Shown here piece by piece: positions 2,621 through 36,584 of a stretch of DNA of 36,584 nt. Position 1 is the first letter of the stretch. The number at the start of each line of letters is the position of its first letter. Below the pieces are notes generated by a model. The model ran no database searches, was not told where the DNA came from, and saw nothing but the letters and a program-made list of their open reading frames with translations. Made by a program: the position numbers and the translations under genes. Source of the stretch: a virus (taxonomy: Duplodnaviria; Heunggongvirae; Uroviricota; Caudoviricetes); IMG/VR virus record IMGVR_UViG_2718218304_000003. One strand, 5' to 3'.

Positions 2621-2732
2621 AACTGAAGTTGCCCTGAAAATGAAATTTTTTTGCACAACCGCAGAACTTTTCCGCAGGGCATCAGTCTTAATTAGTGCCA
2701 CTGCTTTTCTTTGATGTCCCCATTTTGTGGAG

Positions 2733-2775
2733 CCCATCAACCCCGCCATTTCGGTTCAAGGTTGATGGGTTTTTT
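2733..2775 (+). terminator. intrinsic terminator in host/prophage junction
   Basis: Perfect 10-bp stem CCCATCAACC / GGTTGATGGG (2733-2742 / 2760-2769), 17-nt loop, T6 run at 2770-2775. Confidence 0.5.
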
Positions 2776-2855
2776 GTTGTCTGAAATTTATGCCGTTTAA
2801 AATCATGATGTTAGAAGCACTGTTTTTTAACGATGGCGACAAAATGGCGGCAGCG

Positions 2856-24635: not shown

Positions 24636-25691
24636 TTAAAAATTATTTTCTTCAATAGAGAACTCAATCCCTCGGGATAACTTATCAATATTCACATCAA
24701 ATGCGATATCTGTTAATTCACCATCCTCGATTTCATACATAACTTCAATTTCAATATCGAAACTAATCTCTTGAACTTCAGTTCGTGTGGTTGTCTCCAT
24801 TGGAATCATTACTTTATCTTCGCTATCCCAATACCCATTATTAAAGTCTGGACCAGAAACAGTAACTTCAAAATCTACAGAAACAGAGAAGGTCGCTAGA
24901 CAATAATTATTGTCAATCTTAATTATTGATGGTTCAAAGTCATCAATATTGACGACTTCAAATGAATCCAATTCAGCGTCTTCCCAAGTTGAAACGTTAT
25001 ATCCATCGGCATCATTGAGTTGGGCAATTACGTCCGCTCTTATGTCTTCACGTTTGCTTTCGATAAACTGCATCAATTTATTACTTAATTCGTTTGTATG
25101 CGTATTGTATTCACCTAGAAACTTATCAAGTGAATCAATTTGATGAAGATTGTTTTTACCATCACAATAATTTTTTAAGTCACTATCCTCAGAAATGATA
25201 TACACATCTTCATCATTAACAAATCGCTCTACCGCAGCTAAAGTGATTGCATCAGGAAACTCACTTTTTTTCTTATTTTGCCCAAATGGTGGTTCTTTGC
25301 CAAAGTATTTATCTAAAACCTCATTAAGATCTATCACTTCTATTGTAGCTAATTTGGCGTGACATCCTTTCAAAAAATCATCAAAAACTTTTTGTGCTGC
25401 TTCGTGAATTTCATGTTCGTTAAATTGCTGAAAAAAACCATGGAGCGGTCCATTATCAATACTATTCAAAAGCCTAGCTTTTCTTTGTACTGTGTTTATA
25501 GCCTGCAGAGCATCCTTTATTGATTCCTCTATTTTACCTTTTACTTCTCTCTCTACAACTGTAGTTGTAATTAAGACTAAATCACCTTTCGCACATAATT
25601 CATGGAAAGCTTTAAATGCTACCCCCTCAAAATGAAGACCAGCCTTTACGTACGTTTGTGTGTCAATAAATACCTTATTTGTTTTAAGCAT
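24636..25691 (-). CDS. PIN-like domain protein with acidic C-terminal domain; candidate accessory/defence gene
   Basis: 351 aa; SD AGGA before ATG; N-terminus has PIN-style motifs (VFIDT ... VVERE ... IISEDSDL); C-terminal ~150 aa very acidic; AT-rich gene. Confidence 0.7.
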   Translation of the reverse strand: MLKTNKVFIDTQTYVKAGLHFEGVAFKAFHELCAKGDLVLITTTVVEREVKGKIEESIKDALQAINTVQRKARLLNSIDNGPLHGFFQQFNEHEIHEAAQKVFDDFLKGCHAKLATIEVIDLNEVLDKYFGKEPPFGQNKKKSEFPDAITLAAVERFVNDEDVYIISEDSDLKNYCDGKNNLHQIDSLDKFLGEYNTHTNELSNKLMQFIESKREDIRADVIAQLNDADGYNVSTWEDAELDSFEVVNIDDFEPSIIKIDNNYCLATFSVSVDFEVTVSGPDFNNGYWDSEDKVMIPMETTTRTEVQEISFDIEIEVMYEIEDGELTDIAFDVNIDKLSRGIEFSIEENNF

Positions 25692-26050: not shown

Positions 26051-26587
26051 TTATTCATCATAGTGTTCTAATTTCGCTTTTGCTAAACGTCCATGTAAGT
26101 GATTAACAAAATGTAAATTATTCAAAATCAGGCTCATAACGCATTTTAATTGCATCCAGCTAATAAAGTAAATGAAGAAAATACCAATGTATTTAAACAA
26201 GTCTTTATTAGCTTGATAAACAGGTAATGCATAAAACACTGCCTTAACCAAAAAGAAAATTAGAATCCCAGCCATAACACAAGCAGATGTGATTATTGTA
26301 TAAACTAATTTCTCTATTCTTGGTGAGTCATGCTCATTTTTTATATAACTTACATCATCCTTAACAATACTATTCATTGCATTCGGATATAAAAAACCGA
26401 CCCATAAACCGACAATAGTGAATATAGATGCTGAAATATTTATAAGCGCACCTAAAATATCTTTTGCATCATTATAGGAAAAACTTTTGAACGAAAAATA
26501 GCTTATAACGCAGCACAAAACAACAGCAACAAAATTAATCGCCTGCTGTTTTGCAACTGTTATTATCAAACCTTCCGTTTCTGTCAT
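26051..26587 (-). CDS. 4-TM membrane protein, second gene of candidate accessory/defence operon
   Basis: 178 aa with four hydrophobic helices; ATG 1 nt after the stop of the upstream gene; SD GGAAGG inside upstream gene. Confidence 0.75.
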   Translation of the reverse strand: MTETEGLIITVAKQQAINFVAVVLCCVISYFSFKSFSYNDAKDILGALINISASIFTIVGLWVGFLYPNAMNSIVKDDVSYIKNEHDSPRIEKLVYTIITSACVMAGILIFFLVKAVFYALPVYQANKDLFKYIGIFFIYFISWMQLKCVMSLILNNLHFVNHLHGRLAKAKLEHYDE

Positions 26588-26588
26588 A

Positions 26589-27788
26589 TCAACCTTCCGC
26601 TATCTTTTTTGTGGATGCAGCTTCAGATTCTTTAATGGATGCTTCCTCAGCATATTTTACTTCACTAATCAAATCATCACGAATTTTGTTTATTTCATCC
26701 AGTAAAAAACGCGCTGAATAATGCTCAACCCCATCCGAATCTTGAAGAGGAAGTTTAGTCCTGGCTACATAGCTACTGAGCCAAACCGGATTAGCACGAT
26801 CAGCCAGTAAAAAACCCACATCCCATTCAGACTCTTCACCTCTCATTGAGAAGAGATTTCGAAGCTCATCCGATGATGGTGCACCGTCAATTTTAACTTC
26901 AATTTTACGAGGCTGCTCCAAAACAGGAGGTGCCCCAATAAGCTTATTACGCTTTTCTTCACCCACCAGAGATGCTAAAGCTACACTTGTTAGCTTCAAC
27001 AATGGTTGCCTTGTGTCATTTTGGTTTATTACCGTTGTATCCTTTATCAATGTGTGTGTAATTTTATGCCTTAACCTTTCAAAGTTTTCCTCAGCGGCTT
27101 TAAGTTTTGTTTCTTCCAATACAAACTTGAAGATACAGTTTATCTCATTTTTGCCATCTTTATATTGAAACTTAGTATTGTAGACATCCACACAACGACC
27201 AGGGGTCTTAGCTGATTCAAATGTACGCTTAGATTTCGTTCTTTTACCTAACTTACTATTATTATTTACATGCTGAATGAAGTATTGTGCGAAGAGATAA
27301 GTATCAGCGAAAGAATGGGGGAATCTGATTGATGCTATTTTATTCAACTCAGGAATAATCCAGTAATAGCAGGGTTCACCCCAAATTATTTTATCCTCAC
27401 CATGTTCTCTTCCCGCCCTAATGGTTCCTTTACTATCACCACTTACTTTAGAACCGACCTTAATACCATGTATTCCGTTACCGTTCCCCACTTCACGGTA
27501 TAAAACAATTACTGCATCTTTAGTCTGGCTGTCCCTCACAAGGCCTCGACTGTAAACTCGTGTTCGCAGAGGTTGTTCTTCTTTATTCCATGGGAGAGTC
27601 TGCTCAAAATTTTTATCCTTGAGCCACCCTTCTAAATCGTCCAAAACCCCCATAAGATCGCCGAATTTATAATCAAGCTCTTCGGGTTTATTCTTTAAAC
27701 GATAAAACCCACAAGCAGTAATATCAAAGAAGGTGATTGAGCCGTTGTCCACTAAAACTCCTTTTTGCCAAAGCAACACACGATACAT
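26589..27788 (-). CDS. unknown soluble protein, first gene of candidate accessory/defence operon
   Basis: 399-aa ORF, AT-rich, no family I can name; R-x4-H motif (RHKITH); translationally coupled to the membrane gene. Confidence 0.7.
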   Translation of the reverse strand: MYRVLLWQKGVLVDNGSITFFDITACGFYRLKNKPEELDYKFGDLMGVLDDLEGWLKDKNFEQTLPWNKEEQPLRTRVYSRGLVRDSQTKDAVIVLYREVGNGNGIHGIKVGSKVSGDSKGTIRAGREHGEDKIIWGEPCYYWIIPELNKIASIRFPHSFADTYLFAQYFIQHVNNNSKLGKRTKSKRTFESAKTPGRCVDVYNTKFQYKDGKNEINCIFKFVLEETKLKAAEENFERLRHKITHTLIKDTTVINQNDTRQPLLKLTSVALASLVGEEKRNKLIGAPPVLEQPRKIEVKIDGAPSSDELRNLFSMRGEESEWDVGFLLADRANPVWLSSYVARTKLPLQDSDGVEHYSARFLLDEINKIRDDLISEVKYAEEASIKESEAASTKKIAEG

Positions 27789-27955
27789 TTTTCACGTATA
27801 CCATCAGAATCGTCCCTAAACTTCAAGTTACTTATGATAATCAAGAAAGCTGTCGAATGTTGTTGCATAGGCCAAAGTTTCAGGGGAACAAGGCATTCTT
27901 AAATCACTTTTCACTACCCGTTTCTAACGCCTCACGCGGCTCGTTGTTCAACCTT

Positions 27956-27986
27956 GCGGACGATAAAAACCAGTTTTATCGTCCGC
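27956..27986 (-). terminator. strong hairpin after the DinI-like gene
   Basis: 13-bp perfect stem GCGGACGATAAAA / TTTTATCGTCCGC with 5-nt loop, 9 nt downstream of the DinI-like stop. Confidence 0.4.
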
Positions 27987-27994
27987 AACGTTCG

Positions 27995-28228
27995 CTAGTG
28001 TAACCAGCTGTCGTCCTCCCAGACCTTCTGCATAATTTTCATCACTTGTTTTCTTTCTTCGTCCAGTTGCAGTCCGGTCAGTTCCACACCGTTAGAGCTA
28101 CCTTTGCGGATACGAATTACCGTTTTGGGATACAGGGGGCGCAGATTGCGGTAAAGCTCGGATTCAAGGGCGTCCAGTGTAGACTGGCTAATCTTCTGCT
28201 CTTTATCGATCATTATTTCAATGCGCAT
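27995..28228 (-). CDS. DinI-like protein (SOS-inducible; Tum-type antirepressor candidate)
   Basis: DinI-family similarity (MRIEI.IDK, LY.KTVIRIRKGSSNGVELTGL, ER, KIMQKVWEDD.W); start moved to MRIEI, preceded by SD GAGGTGA. Confidence 0.75.
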   Translation of the reverse strand: MRIEIMIDKEQKISQSTLDALESELYRNLRPLYPKTVIRIRKGSSNGVELTGLQLDEERKQVMKIMQKVWEDDSWLH

Positions 28229-28238
28229 AAAAGTCACC

Positions 28239-28427
28239 TCAGCTGATGACATCCATTGAGCGGTTGTATTCATGGGTTCTGATTTTTGCCATGAGTTCAT
28301 CTGTCAGTTCAGAAACCCACTGCAGGGCCAGCCCCTTCTCTTCATCACTACACTCACTAGCCGCTACAAGCTTAAGAAAAAAATCAATGCGCTGGAGCTT
28401 CAAAGACTCCAAAAAATAGTCCTGCAT
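28239..28427 (-). CDS. small protein, first gene of LexA-controlled operon
   Basis: 62-aa ORF with strong SD (GGAGGA) directly downstream of the LexA box; stop 10 nt before the DinI-like start. Confidence 0.5.
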   Translation of the reverse strand: MQDYFLESLKLQRIDFFLKLVAASECSDEEKGLALQWVSELTDELMAKIRTHEYNRSMDVIS

Positions 28428-28469
28428 CTTTCCTCCTATGACACCAAAGCAATGCTGTATACATAACCA

Positions 28470-28485
28470 CTGTTTATATTTACAG
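28470..28485 (-). promoter_or_regulatory. LexA operator (SOS box)
   Basis: CTGTTTATATTTACAG = CTGT-N8-ACAG, overlapping a TTTACA / TATACT promoter reading into the 62-aa and DinI-like genes; weaker half-match CTGT-N8-CCAC adjacent at 28455-28470. Confidence 0.6.
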
Positions 28486-28588
28486 TATATAATAATCTTA
28501 CTGATGTAAAACGTTTTTTTACGTTCATCAGCCTGGTATGCCTGGTATGCCTGGTATTATTAAGAGCACGAATTGTTAACCCGCGTAA

Positions 28589-30961
28589 TTAATACAGATC
28601 CCGCCACTTATCATCTTCCTGCAAACGCTGGTTCCGATAGAAGATACGCAGGCCTGCTCCTGACGGAATACTGCCACCGCGAAGGAGTAAATCGACCTCT
28701 TTCTCGCTGCCATCAAATCCTCTGGACTTCAGTTCATAGACGAGCTGCTGTCGCTGATGATCTGTAATTCGCTGTTTGTAGTCTCTACGCCGTTTCGGTT
28801 TCACCAGGCGTAACCTTGCAGCCAGTTCCCGGCGCTCTTTTTTGTTCATACTGTGCAGGTAATCGTGCAATTCCTTGTCATCCATGCGGGTGATATCCGT
28901 TCTGGTATCCCCATCAGCTGATTTGTCTTTCCCTTGTTGGTACAAATTTTCAGCAAGGGGACAGTTATTGCCACGAGTCCAAGGGGCGCAAGCGCCCTGG
29001 TCGGCTGCCGCCTCCTGAACATCAACGGCCTTACGAACCATTTTCCACTTCACGGCATGAGTGCAGATCTTGCCCTCTGCAATAGGTGACCAGATGCCAT
29101 AAATACGAATGCCGTGATCGCCATAGGCGGTCGGCTCTTCGTTGATTTCATAAGCGGTTCTGATGAGGTGATATTTGCGGGGAACCAGTACGCCGCCCTG
29201 CTTCATGATGTAGGTGGCAAAACAACCAGCATCAGCAGCAGCCAGGATGGCATCAAGGCGCGGGTTATCCAGTACCGGCGCACCTGCTTTTTTGTCCCCC
29301 TGTTGCCTTGCCGCCTGACCAGCCAGCAATCGCAGTTCACGGTAAGCCTGACGCCCCGGAATGCCAAAGAAGCGGAATTGCTGAACACGATGCAGAGACG
29401 CCCAGGCATTAACGTATTCAGCATTATCACGCAGGGATTTCCCCGTTTCCTTGCTGATCTCGCCAGCCAGACCACGCCCGTCAATGTTCTTACTGATGTA
29501 TTTCGCGATGTAGCTTGTTGGCGTACCTTTGCGCGGGTTAATCAACTCAGACTTAAAGCGCGGCCCAGTGTTATTGCCCAGTTCCTCGCGGTCTTCACGG
29601 ATGGCAAACTTACGCAGTAATGCAGTGATGGCGCGGCGGTCTTTTTTGCGCATAAAACACAACAGGTGCCAGTGAACTGTACCGTCATGATGCGGCTCAG
29701 CCACCCGCACGCCATACCACCGCAATCCGGCTTTGTGCATCGCCTTACGAAATGCAGCAAACATGCCGACCAGATAATCACTGCTTTGTCTTACCGTCGC
29801 ATTTGTCCAAGTTGGGTTGGGCCTGCCATTATTTAGCGTGGAATGGAAACGTGACGGACAGGTGATGGTGTAGAAAACGGCGCAGTCACCGCGCATTTCC
29901 GCGATAAGCTCCAGGCCTTTAACACAGGCCATCATCTCATTGCGGCGATGCGCAGGGTTGCTGCTGCTGGCGTTTACCACATCCTCCATGTCCAGCGTGT
30001 CGCCGTCTTCGTTCACCAGTTCATGAGAACGAAAAAACTCCAGCGACTTACGGCGCTGCTCGCGTTTATGCATCACGGCTTCATAGCTGACATAGGGAGA
30101 TGCTTTTTTGCTGACCAGGCAGACAGCACGCAACTGCTCTTCCCGCCATTCACAACGCATCTTCCATAATTTCCGGTACCACCAGTCAGCGCACAACATA
30201 CGCGCCAGCGAACCCGGAATGAGTTCATAGGGCACGGGTTTACGGCGGTTTCTTTTCCGGCGGAGTTGCTCAAACGCAGGCGGGATGACATCCAGACGCA
30301 GGGTTTCCGCTGCCACCTTTTCCCATGTCTTGCGGATTTCTTCTGGCTTAACGTCATCGGTGACATACAAATCGCCACAAGCTGCATCAAGGCACATGCT
30401 CATATGCGCAGCTACCAGGGTGGACAGGCGTTTCACCTGATCCTGACTCATTTCAGGCAGGATCAGCAGGCCGTCCAGCCCTTCATGGCTTGCCATAAAG
30501 CGAAAAGAAGTGGATAGCTGACAGTCGCGTACATGCTCCAGCCGTTCCAGACATGGCTTAATCGTTTCACGCAAATAGCGGGAATAAGCCTTTGGCCTGC
30601 CCAGGCTGCTGAAGTATTCAATACGTTGCATCAGTGGCTTGCTGATATGGGAAGGCTGGGCATTGACGTCCGCCAGAATGACCATATCTGGATTAAAACG
30701 CTGCTGCTCATGCGCCAGCTTTGCCCGACTAATGAGCTTATCCTGCTCCATTTCGCGCTGGACAGGATCACGGGATTCATTAAAGAAATAACGCTCCCAG
30801 ACCTGATCACTCAGTGCCTCGCGGCGCAGCTGTTCCTGCTCGTTATCGGCAGCGTACAGAGCGATCAGGTTTGAAAGCGCAGAAACTGAAGATTGCTCTT
30901 CTGTCTCTACGTAAGGATTGATTGCTTTTTTCTCAGCATTCCAGGAATAGCTGTAGTTCAT
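28589..30961 (-). CDS. A: replication initiation endonuclease gpA (rolling-circle)
   Basis: Conserved P2 A motifs [12 protein letters not shown] and [12 protein letters not shown]; start moved to the ATG whose A is shared with the upstream TAA stop, giving 790 aa. Confidence 0.9.
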
Positions 30962-31791
30962 TACGCAATCTCCAGTTCGAGCTGTGAAGGCTGCAAACCA
31001 TTCGACAGCCAATCAGAAACTGAAGGTGGGCGAACAGCTTCAATTGCACCTTTTAAAATTGCGCAACGGTTTTTCAGAATGACAGCTTTCAGCTCCTTTT
31101 CCGTCAGATTGCGCGAATACTCAGCCTCCTGAATAGCCCGCGTCAGCTCAGGATATTTGCTATTAAATTTGGGGACATTGCAGGCAAGATTTGTACTGTC
31201 GGCAGTCGCCAGTGGGTAATTTCCCAACACACGACCGTCAAGCATGCGCAAACCATGAACAGCTGTTTTGAAATTGTGTCGGCAATAAATTGCTTCAAAA
31301 GCGTCCTGCATACGACGATGCCAGTGCGCAGTTCTGATAGCCGCATATTCACCAGACGATCCAAAGCAGACACGAGGCCATTCACGACATAGCTCGATAA
31401 GCCGATCGATTGACTCGTGCAGATGCCAGACGGGAGTTGCCTTCCCGTAGAACATTTTCGGAACTTCGTTTATCAGGGCATCATTGTCACGTTCACCTCC
31501 GTCCACAACATCAGGAATGACAAAAAAAGCGACCTTAGGATGGTGGTAATAGTTCAGGAGCCATTTATAAAAATCACTCCAGTTAATTTTTAGCCCACGC
31601 ACCCATGCAGAAAATGCGCCGTTATCAATGCCGACGACCTGAGCGTGCTGAATGGACGCCGCAATCTGATCTGGTCGTACATAGGAGACGAAAGCGCCAG
31701 CTCCGCTCACCGCAATACGATGAACGTCGCCAGCACTTCCCCAGACAGGCGTCCCATGGAAATGATGAATTCCGTGGTGCATTTCTTTCAC
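30961..31791 (-). CDS. hypothetical protein coupled between dam and A
   Basis: 276-aa ORF (GTG at 31791 or ATG at 31782); overlaps dam stop and A start; no family recognised. Confidence 0.65.
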
Positions 31792-34568: not shown

Positions 34569-35138
34569 ATGAATTTGGAGAAAGGCGGACGAGGCGCTAT
34601 AGAGCGCATGGTAGAAGCTTATGGATTCAAAACTCGACAGGCGTTGTGCGATCATTTAGGAATCTCTAAAAGTACACTCGCCACACGCTACATGCGTGAC
34701 TCATTCCCAGCAGAATGGGTAATCCAGTGCGCCCTTGAAACGGGCACCTCGCTTAATTGGCTCACAACCGGACATGGTTCAAAGCAAACTTCAGGTAATA
34801 CAAATACTATGGAAGTTGCTAAATATGTATTATCTGATGGTGCCTTGCGTGAAGACGGTTTTTATATTTTTGATAAGGGATTTCTACCCTCTACGTTTAA
34901 AAAACCTTTTGTCATCACAGATAACAATTCTGAATTTATTTGTGATAAAGAATTTGATGATATACGTGACGGTAAATGGGTAATAAGTATTGATGGCGAA
35001 ATAACAATCCGCGACATTACTCGTTTACCCGGTGGAAGAATCTTCGTTGAAGGTGGAAACAGAGCCTTCGAGTGCAAGATAGAAGATGTTGAAATAATTG
35101 GGAAAATTATAAGTTTAACAATTAAGTACGTTAGGTAA
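34569..35138 (+). CDS. cI: CI-like immunity repressor (phage 186 type)
   Basis: 189 aa from ATG preceded by SD GGAG (ORF track starts at GTG 34563); N-terminal HTH-like domain; length close to 186 CI; AT-rich C-terminal half. Confidence 0.7.
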   Translation: MNLEKGGRGAIERMVEAYGFKTRQALCDHLGISKSTLATRYMRDSFPAEWVIQCALETGTSLNWLTTGHGSKQTSGNTNTMEVAKYVLSDGALREDGFYIFDKGFLPSTFKKPFVITDNNSEFICDKEFDDIRDGKWVISIDGEITIRDITRLPGGRIFVEGGNRAFECKIEDVEIIGKIISLTIKYVR

Positions 35139-35153
35139 TACCGGGAGGAAACT

Positions 35154-35345
35154 ATGCTTGGTAAGGTATTTTTTGTGGTTTTATCATGCTCTTTGTTATT
35201 AAACCCACTAACTACCTATGCTAAAAATTATCCTTGTTCTGGGAAAAAGGGAGGTGTCTCTCACTGTACCTCCGATGGAAAGTTCGTTTGCAATGATGGA
35301 ACTATTAGTAAATCAAAAAAAATCTGTACTAAAAACTCGCGATAA
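35154..35345 (+). CDS. small secreted cysteine-rich peptide (moron candidate)
   Basis: 63 aa; strong SD GGGAGGA; signal peptide then ~40-aa Lys-rich mature part with 4 Cys; AT-rich. Confidence 0.55.
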
Positions 35346-35453: not shown

Positions 35454-36584
35454 ATGTATGGTCGCAGGATTTCATACATTGACACTGGTTATATATACAG
35501 TAAAAATGTTCTCTATTGGAGGGCATTTTTTATGGCAGTACGAAAACTCACCACAGGAAAATGGCTTTGCGAATGTTACCCCGCCGGACGTAGTGGGCGT
35601 CGTGTGCGTAAACAATTCGCCACCAAAGGCGAAGCTCTGGCTTTTGAGCGCCATACGATGGAAGAAACCGAAGCAAAGCCCTGGCTGGGAGAATCAGTGG
35701 ATCGTCGAACACTGAAAGACGTGGTTGAGCTATGGTTCAAACTACATGGTAAATCTCTAACCGCTGGGCAGCATGTCTATGATAAATTGCTGTTGATGGT
35801 TGACGCTCTGGGCAATCCCCTTGCAACCGATCTCACCTCTAAAATGTTTGCCCACTATCGAGATAAACGCCTGACAGGTGAGATCTACTTCAGCGAGAAA
35901 TGGAAGAAAGGAGCAAGCCCGGTCACCATTAACCTGGAGCAAAGCTATCTAAGTAGTGTTTTTAGCGAACTATCCCGCCTGGGCGAATGGTCGTATCCAA
36001 ACCCACTGGAGAACATGCGAAAATTCACCATCGCAGAAAAAGAGATGGCATGGCTTACCCATGAGCAGATTGTTGAACTGCTGGCTGATTGCAAACGTCA
36101 GGACCCAATTCTGGCACTGGTAGTCAAGATATGCTTAAGCACAGGCGCACGCTGGCGAGAAGCAATAAACCTTACCCGATCACAGGTGACTAAATACCGA
36201 ATTACCTTTGTAAGAACGAAGGGGAAGAAAAACAGAAGCATCCCTATCAGTAAAGAGCTTTATGAAGAGATCATGGCGCTTGATGGGTTCAATTTCTTCA
36301 CAGACTGCTATTTTCAATTTTTATCCGTGATGGAAAAAACGTCAATCGTGCTCCCTCGCGGTCAACTGACACACGTTCTGCGCCATACGTTTGCGGCGCA
36401 TTTCATGATGTCGGGTGGAAATATCCTTGCTTTGCAAAAAATCCTCGGACATCACGATATAAAAATGACTATGCGTTACGCTCATCTGGCACCGGATCAT
36501 CTGGAAACGGCGCTCCGTTTCAATCCTCTGGCAACGCTGCCAAGTGGCGACAAAGTGGCGGCAGCGGTTGGCATTACCCCGTAA
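35454..36584 (+). CDS. int: tyrosine integrase (P2/186 family)
   Basis: C-terminal catalytic region with R...HxxR...Y (VLRHTFAAHF, MRYAHL); true start probably the internal MAVRKL near 35532; stop is the last codon of the window. Confidence 0.9.
   Translation: MYGRRISYIDTGYIYSKNVLYWRAFFMAVRKLTTGKWLCECYPAGRSGRRVRKQFATKGEALAFERHTMEETEAKPWLGESVDRRTLKDVVELWFKLHGKSLTAGQHVYDKLLLMVDALGNPLATDLTSKMFAHYRDKRLTGEIYFSEKWKKGASPVTINLEQSYLSSVFSELSRLGEWSYPNPLENMRKFTIAEKEMAWLTHEQIVELLADCKRQDPILALVVKICLSTGARWREAINLTRSQVTKYRITFVRTKGKKNRSIPISKELYEEIMALDGFNFFTDCYFQFLSVMEKTSIVLPRGQLTHVLRHTFAAHFMMSGGNILALQKILGHHDIKMTMRYAHLAPDHLETALRFNPLATLPSGDKVAAAVGITP

Follow-up and report, generated by a model that had tools for sequence, protein, structure and literature searches.

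A probable LexA-controlled tum operon in a 186/Fels-2-type, P2-like prophage of Escherichia coli

Background

Sensing of DNA damage through the tum operon is the textbook route in 186-type prophages. A locus of this appearance is found in the window analysed here, i.e., the whole stretch of 36,584 nucleotides of the IMG/VR virus record IMGVR_UViG_2718218304_000003. On its minus strand, a promoter with a LexA box is followed by a gene for a 62-aa protein, a gene for a 77-aa protein of the DinI family, and a stable hairpin, in that order. The locus raises the question of which of the two small proteins relays the SOS signal to the immunity repressor, and what part is left to the other. The original prediction, made from the letters alone, had proposed an equivalent of the tum/SOS operon of 186 in which the candidate antirepressor was the DinI-like protein, and had left the 62-aa ORF unassigned.

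We put at about 0.9 the probability that the region serves as SOS (tum) operon in a P2-like E. coli prophage of the 186/Fels-2 type, with the 62-aa protein, TumA, as the switch, and the DinI-family protein, TumB, as accessory. The tum module as such is ordinary and already characterised, and has little weight as a discovery. The practical value of the assignment lies in annotation, where correct naming of the 62-aa gene shows which P2-like prophages are SOS-inducible. The double operator of the locus, a LexA-boxed int promoter, and the pairing of an invariant TumA with divergent CI C-terminal domains may bear on the tightness and breadth of the SOS response.

Results and discussion

The tum locus and its relatives

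All elements named in the original prediction are present at the coordinates that it gave, and the LexA-controlled operon of two genes, each with an SD of its own, is borne out (Table 1). Replication gene A (gpA) lies directly upstream, ending at 28589 (Pfam Phage_GPA, 1.3e-127), and the succession of gene A, LexA-boxed promoter and tumA is common to 186, PSP3, Fels-2 and six other phages. The proposed equivalence with the 186 operon holds as well, as seen from the same place after gene A and the same design of promoter and operator. The Apl, CII and CI proteins of the window are all of the 186 type by profile and structure matches, and the prophage is complete in its P2-type genes for structure, replication and the switch. 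The tum module was found in 1125 complete E. coli genomes (~21%). Among 73 distinct relatives, alternative codons are synonymous in 17 cases and nonsynonymous in 7 in tumA, with 42 and 1 cases, respectively, in tumB, indicating purifying selection on both genes. No match to Rfam was found between 27600 and 28650; elsewhere in the window, the only Rfam match is RybB.

Table 1. Features of the tum locus and other sites, in coordinates of the window
Feature	Position	Strand	Details
LexA box 1, minus-strand sequence TACTGTAAATATAAACAGTG	28468..28487 (minus-strand reading 28487-28468)		3 mismatches to the 20-nt consensus TACTGTATATATATACAGTA
LexA box 2 (putative), minus-strand sequence CAGTGGTTATGTATACAGCA, overlapping box 1	28453..28472		half-sites and alignment with colicin operators
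-35 hexamer TTTACA; promoter under SOS control, equivalent of p95	28505..28510 (28510-28505)	-	read from the sequence
-10 hexamer TACTGT, within LexA box 1	28482..28487 (28487-28482)	-	17-nt spacer to -35; hexamer as in 186 p95
tumA (tum), 62-aa antirepressor gene (predicted)	28239..28427	-	SD AGGAGG at 28432-28437; ATG at 28427
tumB, 77-aa DinI-family gene	27995..28228	-	SD GAGGTGA (28234-28240), overlapping the tumA stop codon
Stable hairpin just after tumB	27956..27986	-	13-bp perfect stem, 15 bp with flanks; 5-nt loop
Cargo, two PDC-M18-matching genes (A, 399 aa; B, 178 aa)	26051..27788	-	PADLOC PDC-M18A 4.5e-31, PDC-M18B 2.7e-18
cI, 186-type immunity repressor, inferred target of TumA	34569..35138	+	Pfam Phage_CI_repr 2.7e-33, Phage_CI_C 2e-28
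LexA-like box CACTGGTTATATATACAGTA	35483..35502	+	in a promoter-like site (TTGACA 35479-35484), ~30 nt upstream of the int ATG (35532)

In 186, the region is organised as p95-tum-t95a-orf97. The N-terminal antirepressor and C-terminal DinI-like segments of its Tum protein are homologous to the products of the two genes in the window, the target is likewise a 186-type CI, and, as in the window, a hairpin and co-oriented accessory cargo follow. However, 186 Tum comes from a single ORF of 146 aa, inside which a GTG starts the DinI-like part, whereas in the window a stop codon splits it into two genes. The 186 operon also has a single LexA box where the window has an apparently double, colicin-type one; its terminator t95a contains a U tract, which the hairpin in the window lacks; and its cargo is orf97 instead of the PDC-M18-like genes.

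Split tum operons have already been described in the literature (PMC3121763), and PSP3 (tumA/tumB) and Fels-2 (STM2728/STM2726.1) have the same two-gene form as the window. TumB of the window is 100% identical to its Fels-2 counterpart, and TumA is 98.4% identical to STM2728. For Fels-2, the split goes back to Bunny, Liu and Roth (2002), as summarised in PMC3121763. PSP3 TumA belongs to another subfamily (phrog_1993, ~17% identity to TumA of the window), and PSP3 has, unlike the window, a single LexA box. The Gifsy/Fels-1 loci (dinI-gfoA/gftA-irsA) present a LexA-repressed operon with a small antirepressor, a DinI homologue, and a repressor that is not cleavable (PMC3121763). The logic of these loci is the same as in the window, but dinI comes first, in reversed gene order, neither their antirepressors nor their repressors are related in sequence to those of the window, and the phages are lambdoid.

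TumA, the 62-aa protein

No match to the 62-aa protein was found in sequence searches of Pfam, PADLOC and PDB, and the gene is nearly always named "hypothetical protein" in RefSeq and phage records. BLASTP gave no alignment with 186 Tum either, but comparison with PHROG profiles connects the two proteins. TumA matches phrog_698 (3.6e-38), phrog_8554 (2.4e-8) and phrog_1993, which is the PSP3 TumA family (0.0022); the N-terminal half of 186 Tum matches phrog_1993 (2e-23), phrog_8554 (3.3e-12) and phrog_698 (6.7e-6). These reciprocal matches are in register, with residues 7-44 of TumA corresponding to residues 7-44 of the 186 protein. Judged by the profile matches, the ORF is a homologue of the non-DinI, N-terminal, antirepressor half of 186 Tum and of PSP3 TumA, and need no longer be listed as unassigned.

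The annotation of 186 tum reads "expression repressed by LexA; inhibits CI DNA binding", and 186 Tum is reported to bind CI, preventing it from binding to its operators (summarised in PMC3121763 and stated also in the 186 annotation note). Antirepression of CI by the N-terminal half of Tum has been shown in 186, and the same activity would be expected of TumA by analogy. In Fels-2 and PSP3, where tum is split by a stop codon, antirepressor activity has been reported for the upstream half (PMC3121763).

TumB, the DinI-family protein

As originally predicted, the second gene encodes a member of the DinI family. TumB matches the Pfam DinI profile (PF06183) with 81.3 bits (cutoff 24.2; E 6.6e-23), residues 14-76 covering profile positions 1-63 of 63, and it aligns end to end with the structure of E. 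coli DinI (PDB structure: 1GHH, E 2.7e-6). Its identity is 41% with the C-terminal half of 186 Tum (E 3e-24) and 78% with PSP3 TumB. Alignment with 186 Tum, proposed earlier as a check on the locus, succeeds directly for the DinI-family ORF, and for the 62-aa ORF fails at the level of BLASTP but succeeds at the level of profiles. For a truncated, DinI-like product of 186 tum, the annotation gives "modulates SOS induction". Together with family membership, this annotation suggests that TumB may bind RecA filaments and modulate SOS.

Near-identity with a prophage of E. coli HS

The allele found in the window has in effect already been tested genetically. The "P2" prophage of E. coli HS, used in the Phollow study (PMC11195241), is essentially the same element, co-linear with the prophage in the window and integrated at the same chromosomal site. 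The switch proteins are 95-100% identical: Tum is identical at 61 of 62 residues and CI at 181 of 189, so that TumA of the window differs from the tested protein at one residue and CI at 8, and both TumB and the LexA operator are identical. The same small ORF and LexA-boxed promoter precede int in both elements. The two differ in that HS carries other cargo after tumB, and has a canonical terminator-like hairpin with a T run in place of the hairpin in the window.

In-frame deletion of exactly the tum ORF in HS abolishes induction and lysis by mitomycin C (MMC), and a lexA(Ind-) allele abolishes MMC-induced lysis (PMC11195241). The deletion primers match the ATG and TGA junctions of the gene in the window, and leave the SD and ATG of tumB intact. 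The parts of that report covered here mention no complementation, and a polar or translational-coupling effect of the deletion on tumB is a formal possibility. LexA dependence and the need for the 62-aa gene have been shown in the near-identical HS prophage, and by analogy would hold for the window.

Which of the two proteins is the switch?

In the alternative advanced in the original prediction, TumB would be the antirepressor that inactivates CI, and the 62-aa protein would be accessory. We give this a slender chance. The resemblance of TumB to the DinI-like C-terminal half of 186 Tum is compatible with it, and so is the database name of the whole 186 protein, "RecA filament binding protein DinI"; that name, however, is a mislabel taken from the DinI half, and the DinI-only product is a modulator according to the 186 annotation. 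UV induction is likewise annotated on tumA of PSP3 ("UV induction of prophage"), not on its tumB, and the activity reported for split tum operons is that of the upstream half (PMC3121763). Overlap of the tumB SD with the tumA stop codon means that the HS deletion could lower tumB translation by coupling; yet both SD and ATG are kept in that deletion, and induction is still lost (PMC11195241). Moreover, the LexA-boxed homologues of tumA in Yersinia phage vB_YenM_06.16-2, ESSI-2 and ESSI2_ev015 are not accompanied by a DinI gene. All of this points to the 62-aa ORF, rather than the DinI-like protein, as the antirepressor.

The operon might also be a "moron" that benefits the host by modulating SOS through a DinI-type effect on RecA, and is not decisive for induction, for instance in a defective prophage. 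This alternative is in a slightly worse position than the previous one. DinI homologues are frequent as prophage cargo, and deletion of the dinI homologues of the Gifsy prophages left induction unaffected (PMC3121763). On the other hand, none of the P2-type structural, replication and switch genes is missing from the window, the prophage is co-linear with the inducible element of HS at the same integration locus, with nearly the same switch proteins, and tumA is under purifying selection. The reading with TumA as the switch and TumB as accessory is kept in what follows.

The LexA operator and its promoter

The sequence CTGTTTATATTTACAG at 28470-28485 is the sole occurrence of CTGT-N8-ACAG in the window. 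By itself, this bare motif is weak evidence, as at least one occurrence was seen in 35 of 100 shuffles. The full 20-mer is a different matter: none of the 100 shuffles had even one match at 3 mismatches to TACTGTATATATATACAGTA. The window was scored with a position weight matrix derived from an informally compiled set of E. coli SOS boxes. LexA box 1 received 24.2 bits, compared to a median of 21.2 bits for the training sites themselves, whereas the window maximum in 500 shuffles had a 95th percentile of 16.3 and a maximum of 20.7. Both scores lie far outside the null, which confirms the near-consensus SOS box over a minus-strand promoter claimed in the original prediction. Like LexA operators of gamma-proteobacteria, box 1 is a palindrome with an AT-rich spacer and the score of a known site, placed over the -10 element of the core promoter. 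It is nearly invariant in the 73 distinct relatives, and a TACTGT-N8-ACAGT box lies 38-68 nt upstream of each tumA homologue in 10 of 10 lineages with diverged flanks. That the box is a chance AT-rich palindrome at a promoter free of SOS regulation has practically nil probability: the frequency of the bare motif in shuffles is all that speaks for it, against the 20-mer and matrix scores, the conserved box and its constant position, and the identical HS operator, which precedes a gene whose function needs cleavable LexA (PMC11195241).

The promoter has the design of the annotated 186 p95, where TTCACA, an 18-nt spacer and TACTGT are found, and where the LexA site also starts at the -10 element. 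The -35 hexamer is invariant in the 73 distinct relatives. A generic promoter scan missed this promoter, because its -10 hexamer matches only 3 of 6 positions. An imperfect palindrome at 28501-28531, over the -35 element, was considered as an upstream insulating terminator of the SOS promoter, and dropped, as its folding is not significant (z -1.9).

The original prediction had also noted a half-consensus box abutting the first. A second box is indeed present, CTGTATACATAACCAC at 28455-28470, but a second operator within a double overlapping SOS box of the colicin type is the better reading. Scored on its own with the same matrix, box 2 has 13.9 bits, which is inside the chance range. Both of its half-sites (TGG and ACAG) persist in 68 of the 73 distinct relatives, with a variable spacer. 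The 36-nt double operator can be aligned with the paired, overlapping SOS boxes that precede colicin and pesticin genes, and the form common to the window, two colicin plasmids and the pesticin gene of pPCP1 is CTGT-N8-ACAGTGGTT-N6-ACAG. In this alignment, the GTGG-N8-ACAG box overlaps the first one in the same register as in colicin operators, and the window sequence is nearly identical to the 36-nt operator of colicin and pesticin promoters, (T/G)CTGT-N8-ACAGTGGTT-N6-ACAG. There, the double box controls a bacteriocin, whereas in the window it would control a prophage antirepressor. The double boxes of colicin genes bind two LexA dimers (PMC2994835), and by analogy the operator in the window may be occupied by two dimers as well.

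In the lysogen, LexA on the double operator, covering the -10 element and the start region of the promoter downstream of gene A, would keep the operon silent. DNA damage would cause RecA-stimulated self-cleavage of LexA and free the promoter. From the resulting bicistronic mRNA, TumA would be made first and bind the 186-type CI, which is probably unable to cleave itself; most likely, TumA acts on the N-terminal DNA-binding domain of CI, so that CI leaves its operators and the lytic promoter fires. TumB would not be part of the switch, and most likely tunes the strength or duration of the SOS signal via RecA filaments. Transcription would then reach the strong hairpin without a U tract, with some read-through into the defence cargo possible.

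The CI repressor and its pairing with TumA

The CI protein matches the structure of 186 CI (PDB structure: 2FJR, E 3.3e-31). Its score against Pfam Peptidase_S24 is 16.7 bits, below the cutoff of 23.3, and it has no credible self-cleavage domain of this type; hence CI would need an antirepressor. The Fels-2 and window repressors are 68% identical in the N-terminal domain and 27% in the C-terminal domain. Over 66 loci, TumA is 96.8-100% identical, while the identity of CI is 65-100% in the N-terminal domain and goes down to 25% in the C-terminal one. The co-variation with CI expected of a specific antirepressor was not seen among these 66 close relatives, in which TumA is near-invariant and CI variable. 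Across 10 reference phages, identity of TumA tracks that of the CI N-terminal domain (rho 0.72, Mantel p 0.0015), compared to rho of 0.20 for the C-terminal domain; however, it also tracks gpA (rho 0.64), so the link is confounded by linkage. The most likely target of TumA is the conserved N-terminal DNA-binding domain of CI, for which these correlations are suggestive but subject to the same confounding.

A broader proposal, which we consider unlikely, is that the near-invariant TumA is a generalist antirepressor acting on the conserved HTH of many 186-type CIs, whose oligomerisation domains have diverged beyond 30% identity, and that the SOS wiring is more elaborate than in 186, with a double colicin-type operator for tum, LexA repression of int from a promoter of its own, and transcripts that in part run on into an anti-phage cargo slot. 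If TumA were such a generalist, SOS in one cell would cross-induce co-resident P2-like prophages with different CI types.

The hairpin and the downstream cargo

The hairpin with a 13-bp perfect stem claimed after tumB was confirmed, and its folding is highly stable (dG -26.3 kcal/mol, z -6.5). The sequence 3' of it, AAGGTTGAAC, contains no T run, which is why the terminator scan did not report it. Accordingly, a canonical Rho-independent terminator is ruled out, as the GC-rich stem is present without a U tract. Stems of differing sequence in the relatives fold all the same, a sign of covariation. Conservation breaks off right at the stop codon of tumB, and the hairpin marks the beginning of the variable cargo region.

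The cargo, which matches PDC-M18, a candidate defence system of PADLOC, is co-oriented with the tum operon and takes the place of 186 orf97, which is annotated behind the partial terminator t95a. It was found in only 8 complete E. coli genomes, compared to the 1125 with the tum module. Scanning and reading of positions 27750-27995 gave no convincing independent sigma-70 promoter for the cargo. With no such promoter, and no U tract in the hairpin, read-through from the tum operon into the PDC-M18-like genes is possible.

A LexA-like box at the probable int promoter

Separately from the tum operon, a second strong LexA-like box is present at the probable int promoter. With 25.4 bits, it is the best match to the matrix in the window, and it has 3 mismatches to the consensus. 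The CTG[GT]-N8-ACAG core is kept in 39 of 39 related loci that have the region, with differing flanks, and the box is found in E. coli HS as well.

The prophage and its tum operon

The window is a segment of the E. coli chromosome that carries a P2-like prophage, oriented in reverse relative to the standard P2 map; strains D9 and D4 are 100% identical to it across the tested 2.7 kb. A RybB sRNA gene lies next to the prophage on the late-gene side, which fits integration at the locus used by the 'P2' prophage of E. coli HS, between rcdA and ybjL with RybB nearby. The layout of the tum operon matches the SOS operon of phage 186, where the order is gene A, promoter p95, LexA site, tum, partial terminator t95a and orf97; p95 itself consists of the -35 element TTCACA, 18 nt, and the -10 element TACTGT, at which the LexA site starts. 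All coordinates in the original prediction, made from the sequence alone, are correct.

Features of the tum operon and of other prophage regions discussed in the text
Feature	Coordinates	Strand	Remarks
RybB sRNA gene	2700-2778	+	Rfam, 105 bits
351-aa protein, N-terminal PIN_12 domain	24636-25691	-	Pfam E 1.6e-25; after PDC-M18-like pair
PDC-M18-like pair	26051-27788	-	PADLOC candidate defence; A E 4.5e-31, B 2.7e-18; directly 3' of tum operon, co-oriented
Post-hairpin block, ~30 nt	27925-27955	-	AAGGTTGAACAACGAG-N7-GAGGCGTTAG; directly 3' of post-tumB hairpin
Hairpin, 13-15 bp	27986-27956	-	3' of tumB
tumB, 77-codon ORF	28228-27995	-	
SD GAGGTGA		-	Overlaps tumA stop codon; serves tumB
tumA, 62-codon ORF	28427-28239	-	
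SD AGGAGG		-	5' of tumA
Box 2 (LexA-like), CAGTGGTTATGTATACAGCA	28472-28453	-	Read on minus strand; overlaps box 1
Box 1 (20-nt LexA site), TACTGTAAATATAAACAGTG	28487-28468	-	Read on minus strand
-10 TACTGT	28487-28482	-	17-nt spacer from -35
-35 TTTACA	28510-28505	-	
Tandem repeat, three perfect copies	28531-28557		9-nt unit GCCTGGTAT (plus strand)
Replication gene A	28589-31012	-	Pfam Phage_GPA 1.3e-127; tum operon just 3'
CI repressor, 186-type	34569-35138	+	Phage_CI_repr and Phage_CI_C domains
63-aa ORF	35154-35345	+	Between cI and int
int LexA-like site, CACTGGTTATATATACAGTA	35483-35502	+	25.4 bits (PWM)
Pre-int hairpin, then T run	35508-35531	+	Immediately 5' of int start codon

A probable double LexA operator

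The predicted SOS box overlapping a minus-strand promoter is borne out by shuffling, matrix scoring and conservation. The CTGT-N8-ACAG motif alone is weak evidence, because at least one copy occurs in 35 of 100 shuffles; the full 20-nt site is strong, as box 1 has at most three mismatches to the 20-nt consensus and such a match is found in none of 100 shuffles. The position-weight-matrix scoring proposed with the original prediction gives box 1 24.2 bits, against a null window maximum with a 95th percentile of 16.3 and a highest value of 20.7 over 500 shuffles; the matrix was made from a background set of known E. coli SOS boxes, and the absolute scores should be read with that caveat. From the -35 element through box 1 the sequence is almost invariant across 73 distinct related sequences, while adjacent intergenic bases vary.

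Box 2 alone scores 13.9 bits, inside the chance range. Its half-sites are kept in 68 of the 73 relatives and its spacer is the most variable intergenic stretch; the double-box arrangement also occurs in SopEPhi, ST437-OXA245phi4.1 and MLG42, despite differing flanks. A search with a 44-nt operator query retrieved small Col-type plasmids and Y. pestis pPCP1, the matches lying directly 5' of a colicin-like pore-forming gene and of pesticin, and the aligned operators share the form CTGT-N8-ACAGTGGTT-N6-ACAG with the window. Phages 186 and PSP3 and the tumA lineages that lack a DinI gene have a single LexA box. By analogy, the double-operator logic of colicin-type promoters would fit a gene whose expression kills the lysogen; this second box is an addition to the literature that we consulted on the tum operon. 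The tandem repeat, which lies past the gpA stop codon and before the tum promoter, has two imperfect copies in most relatives.

TumA and TumB as separate halves of Tum

Both ORFs have the strong SD expected of them and vary as real genes do. Among the 73 relatives, variable sites fall at codon positions 1, 2 and 3 as 4/4/15 in tumA and 4/0/35 in tumB, and the synonymous and nonsynonymous alternative codons number 17 and 7 in tumA, and 42 and 1 in tumB. The DinI-family assignment of the second product holds (PF06183, 81.3 bits; cutoff 24.2): TumB aligns end to end with the solved structure of E. coli DinI, and shares 78% identity with PSP3 TumB and 41% with the C-terminal half of 186 Tum (E 3e-24).

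For TumA, BLASTP found no similarity to 186 Tum, and searches of Pfam, PADLOC and PDB gave no match, so that its link to Tum is through profiles. TumA matches phrog_698, phrog_8554 and phrog_1993, and these three families are also hit, in register over residues 7-44, by the first 70 residues of 186 Tum; PSP3 TumA is a member of phrog_1993, and a Yersinia phage protein annotated 'tum protein' matches phrog_698 (1.2e-9). On these shared, in-register matches the 62-aa product, previously left unassigned, is identified as TumA, the split-off N-terminal half of Tum. Both proteins have close Fels-2 counterparts, STM2728 for TumA (98.4% identity) and a fully identical protein (100%) for TumB. The second half of Tum is DinI-like, tum of Fels-2 and PSP3 is split in two by a stop codon, and antirepression in PSP3 resides in the upstream gene (Lemire et al., PMC3121763); the PSP3 annotations read 'similar to 5' end 186 tum; UV induction of prophage' for tumA and 'similar to dinI and 3' end of 186 tum' for tumB. 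Thus the Tum-type module and its analogy to 186 stand, and the role of antirepressor passes from the DinI-like protein to the 62-aa one.

The most direct evidence on this operon comes from the HS prophage, in which Tum is identical at 61 of 62 residues, CI at 181 of 189, and TumB and the operator completely. The Phollow preprint (PMC11195241) describes an in-frame tum deletion in that prophage, with primers that join ...AGGAGGAAAGATG straight to TGAGGTGACTTTTATGCGCATTG, the ATG and TGA of the 62-aa ORF, and leave the SD and start codon of the DinI gene intact; with either this deletion or lexA(Ind-), mitomycin C no longer caused lysis and viral foci no longer formed. The tum module is, then, already known and genetically tested in a near-identical prophage. 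Of 5426 complete E. coli genomes 1125 carry it, nearly always with the label 'hypothetical protein' on the small gene; what remains of value here is the correct annotation and three side observations.

Induction and the target of TumA

CI matches the 186 CI structure (2FJR, E 3.3e-31). Since its Peptidase_S24 score is under the Pfam threshold, CI is expected not to self-cleave, and an antirepressor would be needed. Most likely, the promoter would be repressed by LexA in the lysogen; DNA damage would take LexA away; TumA would be produced, bind CI and block its binding to DNA; and the lytic promoter would then fire. The annotation of 186 Tum likewise describes antirepression by CI binding, which stops CI from binding DNA. 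TumB, by analogy, most likely acts on RecA filaments, tuning the SOS signal. It looks accessory, because the 186 annotation gives the DinI-only product of tum a modulating role in SOS induction, deletion of dinI homologues in Gifsy prophages had no effect on induction (PMC3121763), and LexA-boxed tumA homologues occur without a DinI gene in Yersinia phage vB_YenM_06.16-2, ESSI-2 and ESSI2_ev015.

Among 66 IMG/VR loci TumA identity is 96.8-100%; in the same loci the N-terminal HTH domain of CI ranges over 65-100%, and the C-terminal (oligomerisation) domain over 25-100%. Across ten reference phages TumA identity rises with that of the CI N-terminal domain (rho 0.72, Mantel p 0.0015) and with that of the neighbouring gpA (rho 0.64), and shows no correlation with that of the C-terminal domain (rho 0.20). 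This pattern, an addition to the consulted literature, suggests, short of proof, that TumA recognises the conserved DNA-binding domain of CI. If so, it would fit the reported effect on DNA binding, and one TumA could serve many CI variants. Several CI repressors paired with the same TumA, of 290-320 aa, have two tandem CI-type HTH domains followed by one C-terminal domain (loci L039, L065, L068, L024, L044, L056, L013 and L030, and PSP3 cI).

The cargo slot

The hairpin predicted downstream of tumB is present and very stable (dG -26.3 kcal/mol, z -6.5); in relatives the stem sequences differ and still pair. Sequence conservation among relatives collapses precisely at the tumB stop codon, hence the hairpin is the edge of a variable cargo slot, a position occupied in 186 by orf97, behind the partial terminator. 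No U tract follows the stem and a promoter scan found no convincing separate cargo promoter, so SOS-driven read-through into the cargo is possible.

Only 8 complete E. coli genomes have the PDC-M18-like cargo, versus 1125 with the tum module. The B protein of this cargo appears membrane-embedded, and the true start of A is likely a GTG at ~27752 behind AAGGAG, not the ATG at 27788. The PIN_12 protein is encoded between this pair and the portal gene, in the same hotspot beside the presumed cos end; PADLOC gave no match for it. The ~30-nt post-hairpin block occupies the same position in PSP3 (L003) and most IMG/VR loci, and is common to Felsduovirus-type prophages and PSP3, though the hairpin stems differ and the sequence further downstream is unrelated. 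No Rfam family matches it; it may serve to anchor recombination at the edge of the cargo, or as an element of an RNA 3' end.

The int region

The best LexA-like site in the entire window lies ~30 nt 5' of the int start codon (ATG at 35532), with a perfect -35 TTGACA on one side and an A/T-rich -10 on the other (region 35479-35532). CTG[GT]-N8-ACAG is kept in all 39 of the related loci having this region, with divergent flanks, and in E. coli HS; in 186 and Fels-2, by contrast, int directly follows cI without a LexA-boxed promoter. The site may be a second LexA-repressed SOS input, boosting Int for excision.

The N-terminus encoded by the ORF between cI and int resembles a signal peptide, and the product, a hypothetical protein in the E. 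coli HS annotation too, has six cysteines. Neither 186 nor Fels-2 has this ORF, and the PSP3 slot holds a different small gene (DUF2511). The pre-int hairpin, 3' of the LexA-boxed promoter, includes the int Shine-Dalgarno; it reads GCCCTCTGATATGAGGGCTTTTTTATG in relatives, with a weaker version, TTCTCTATTGGAGGGCATTTTTTATG, in the window, and could act by attenuation or in the control of translation.
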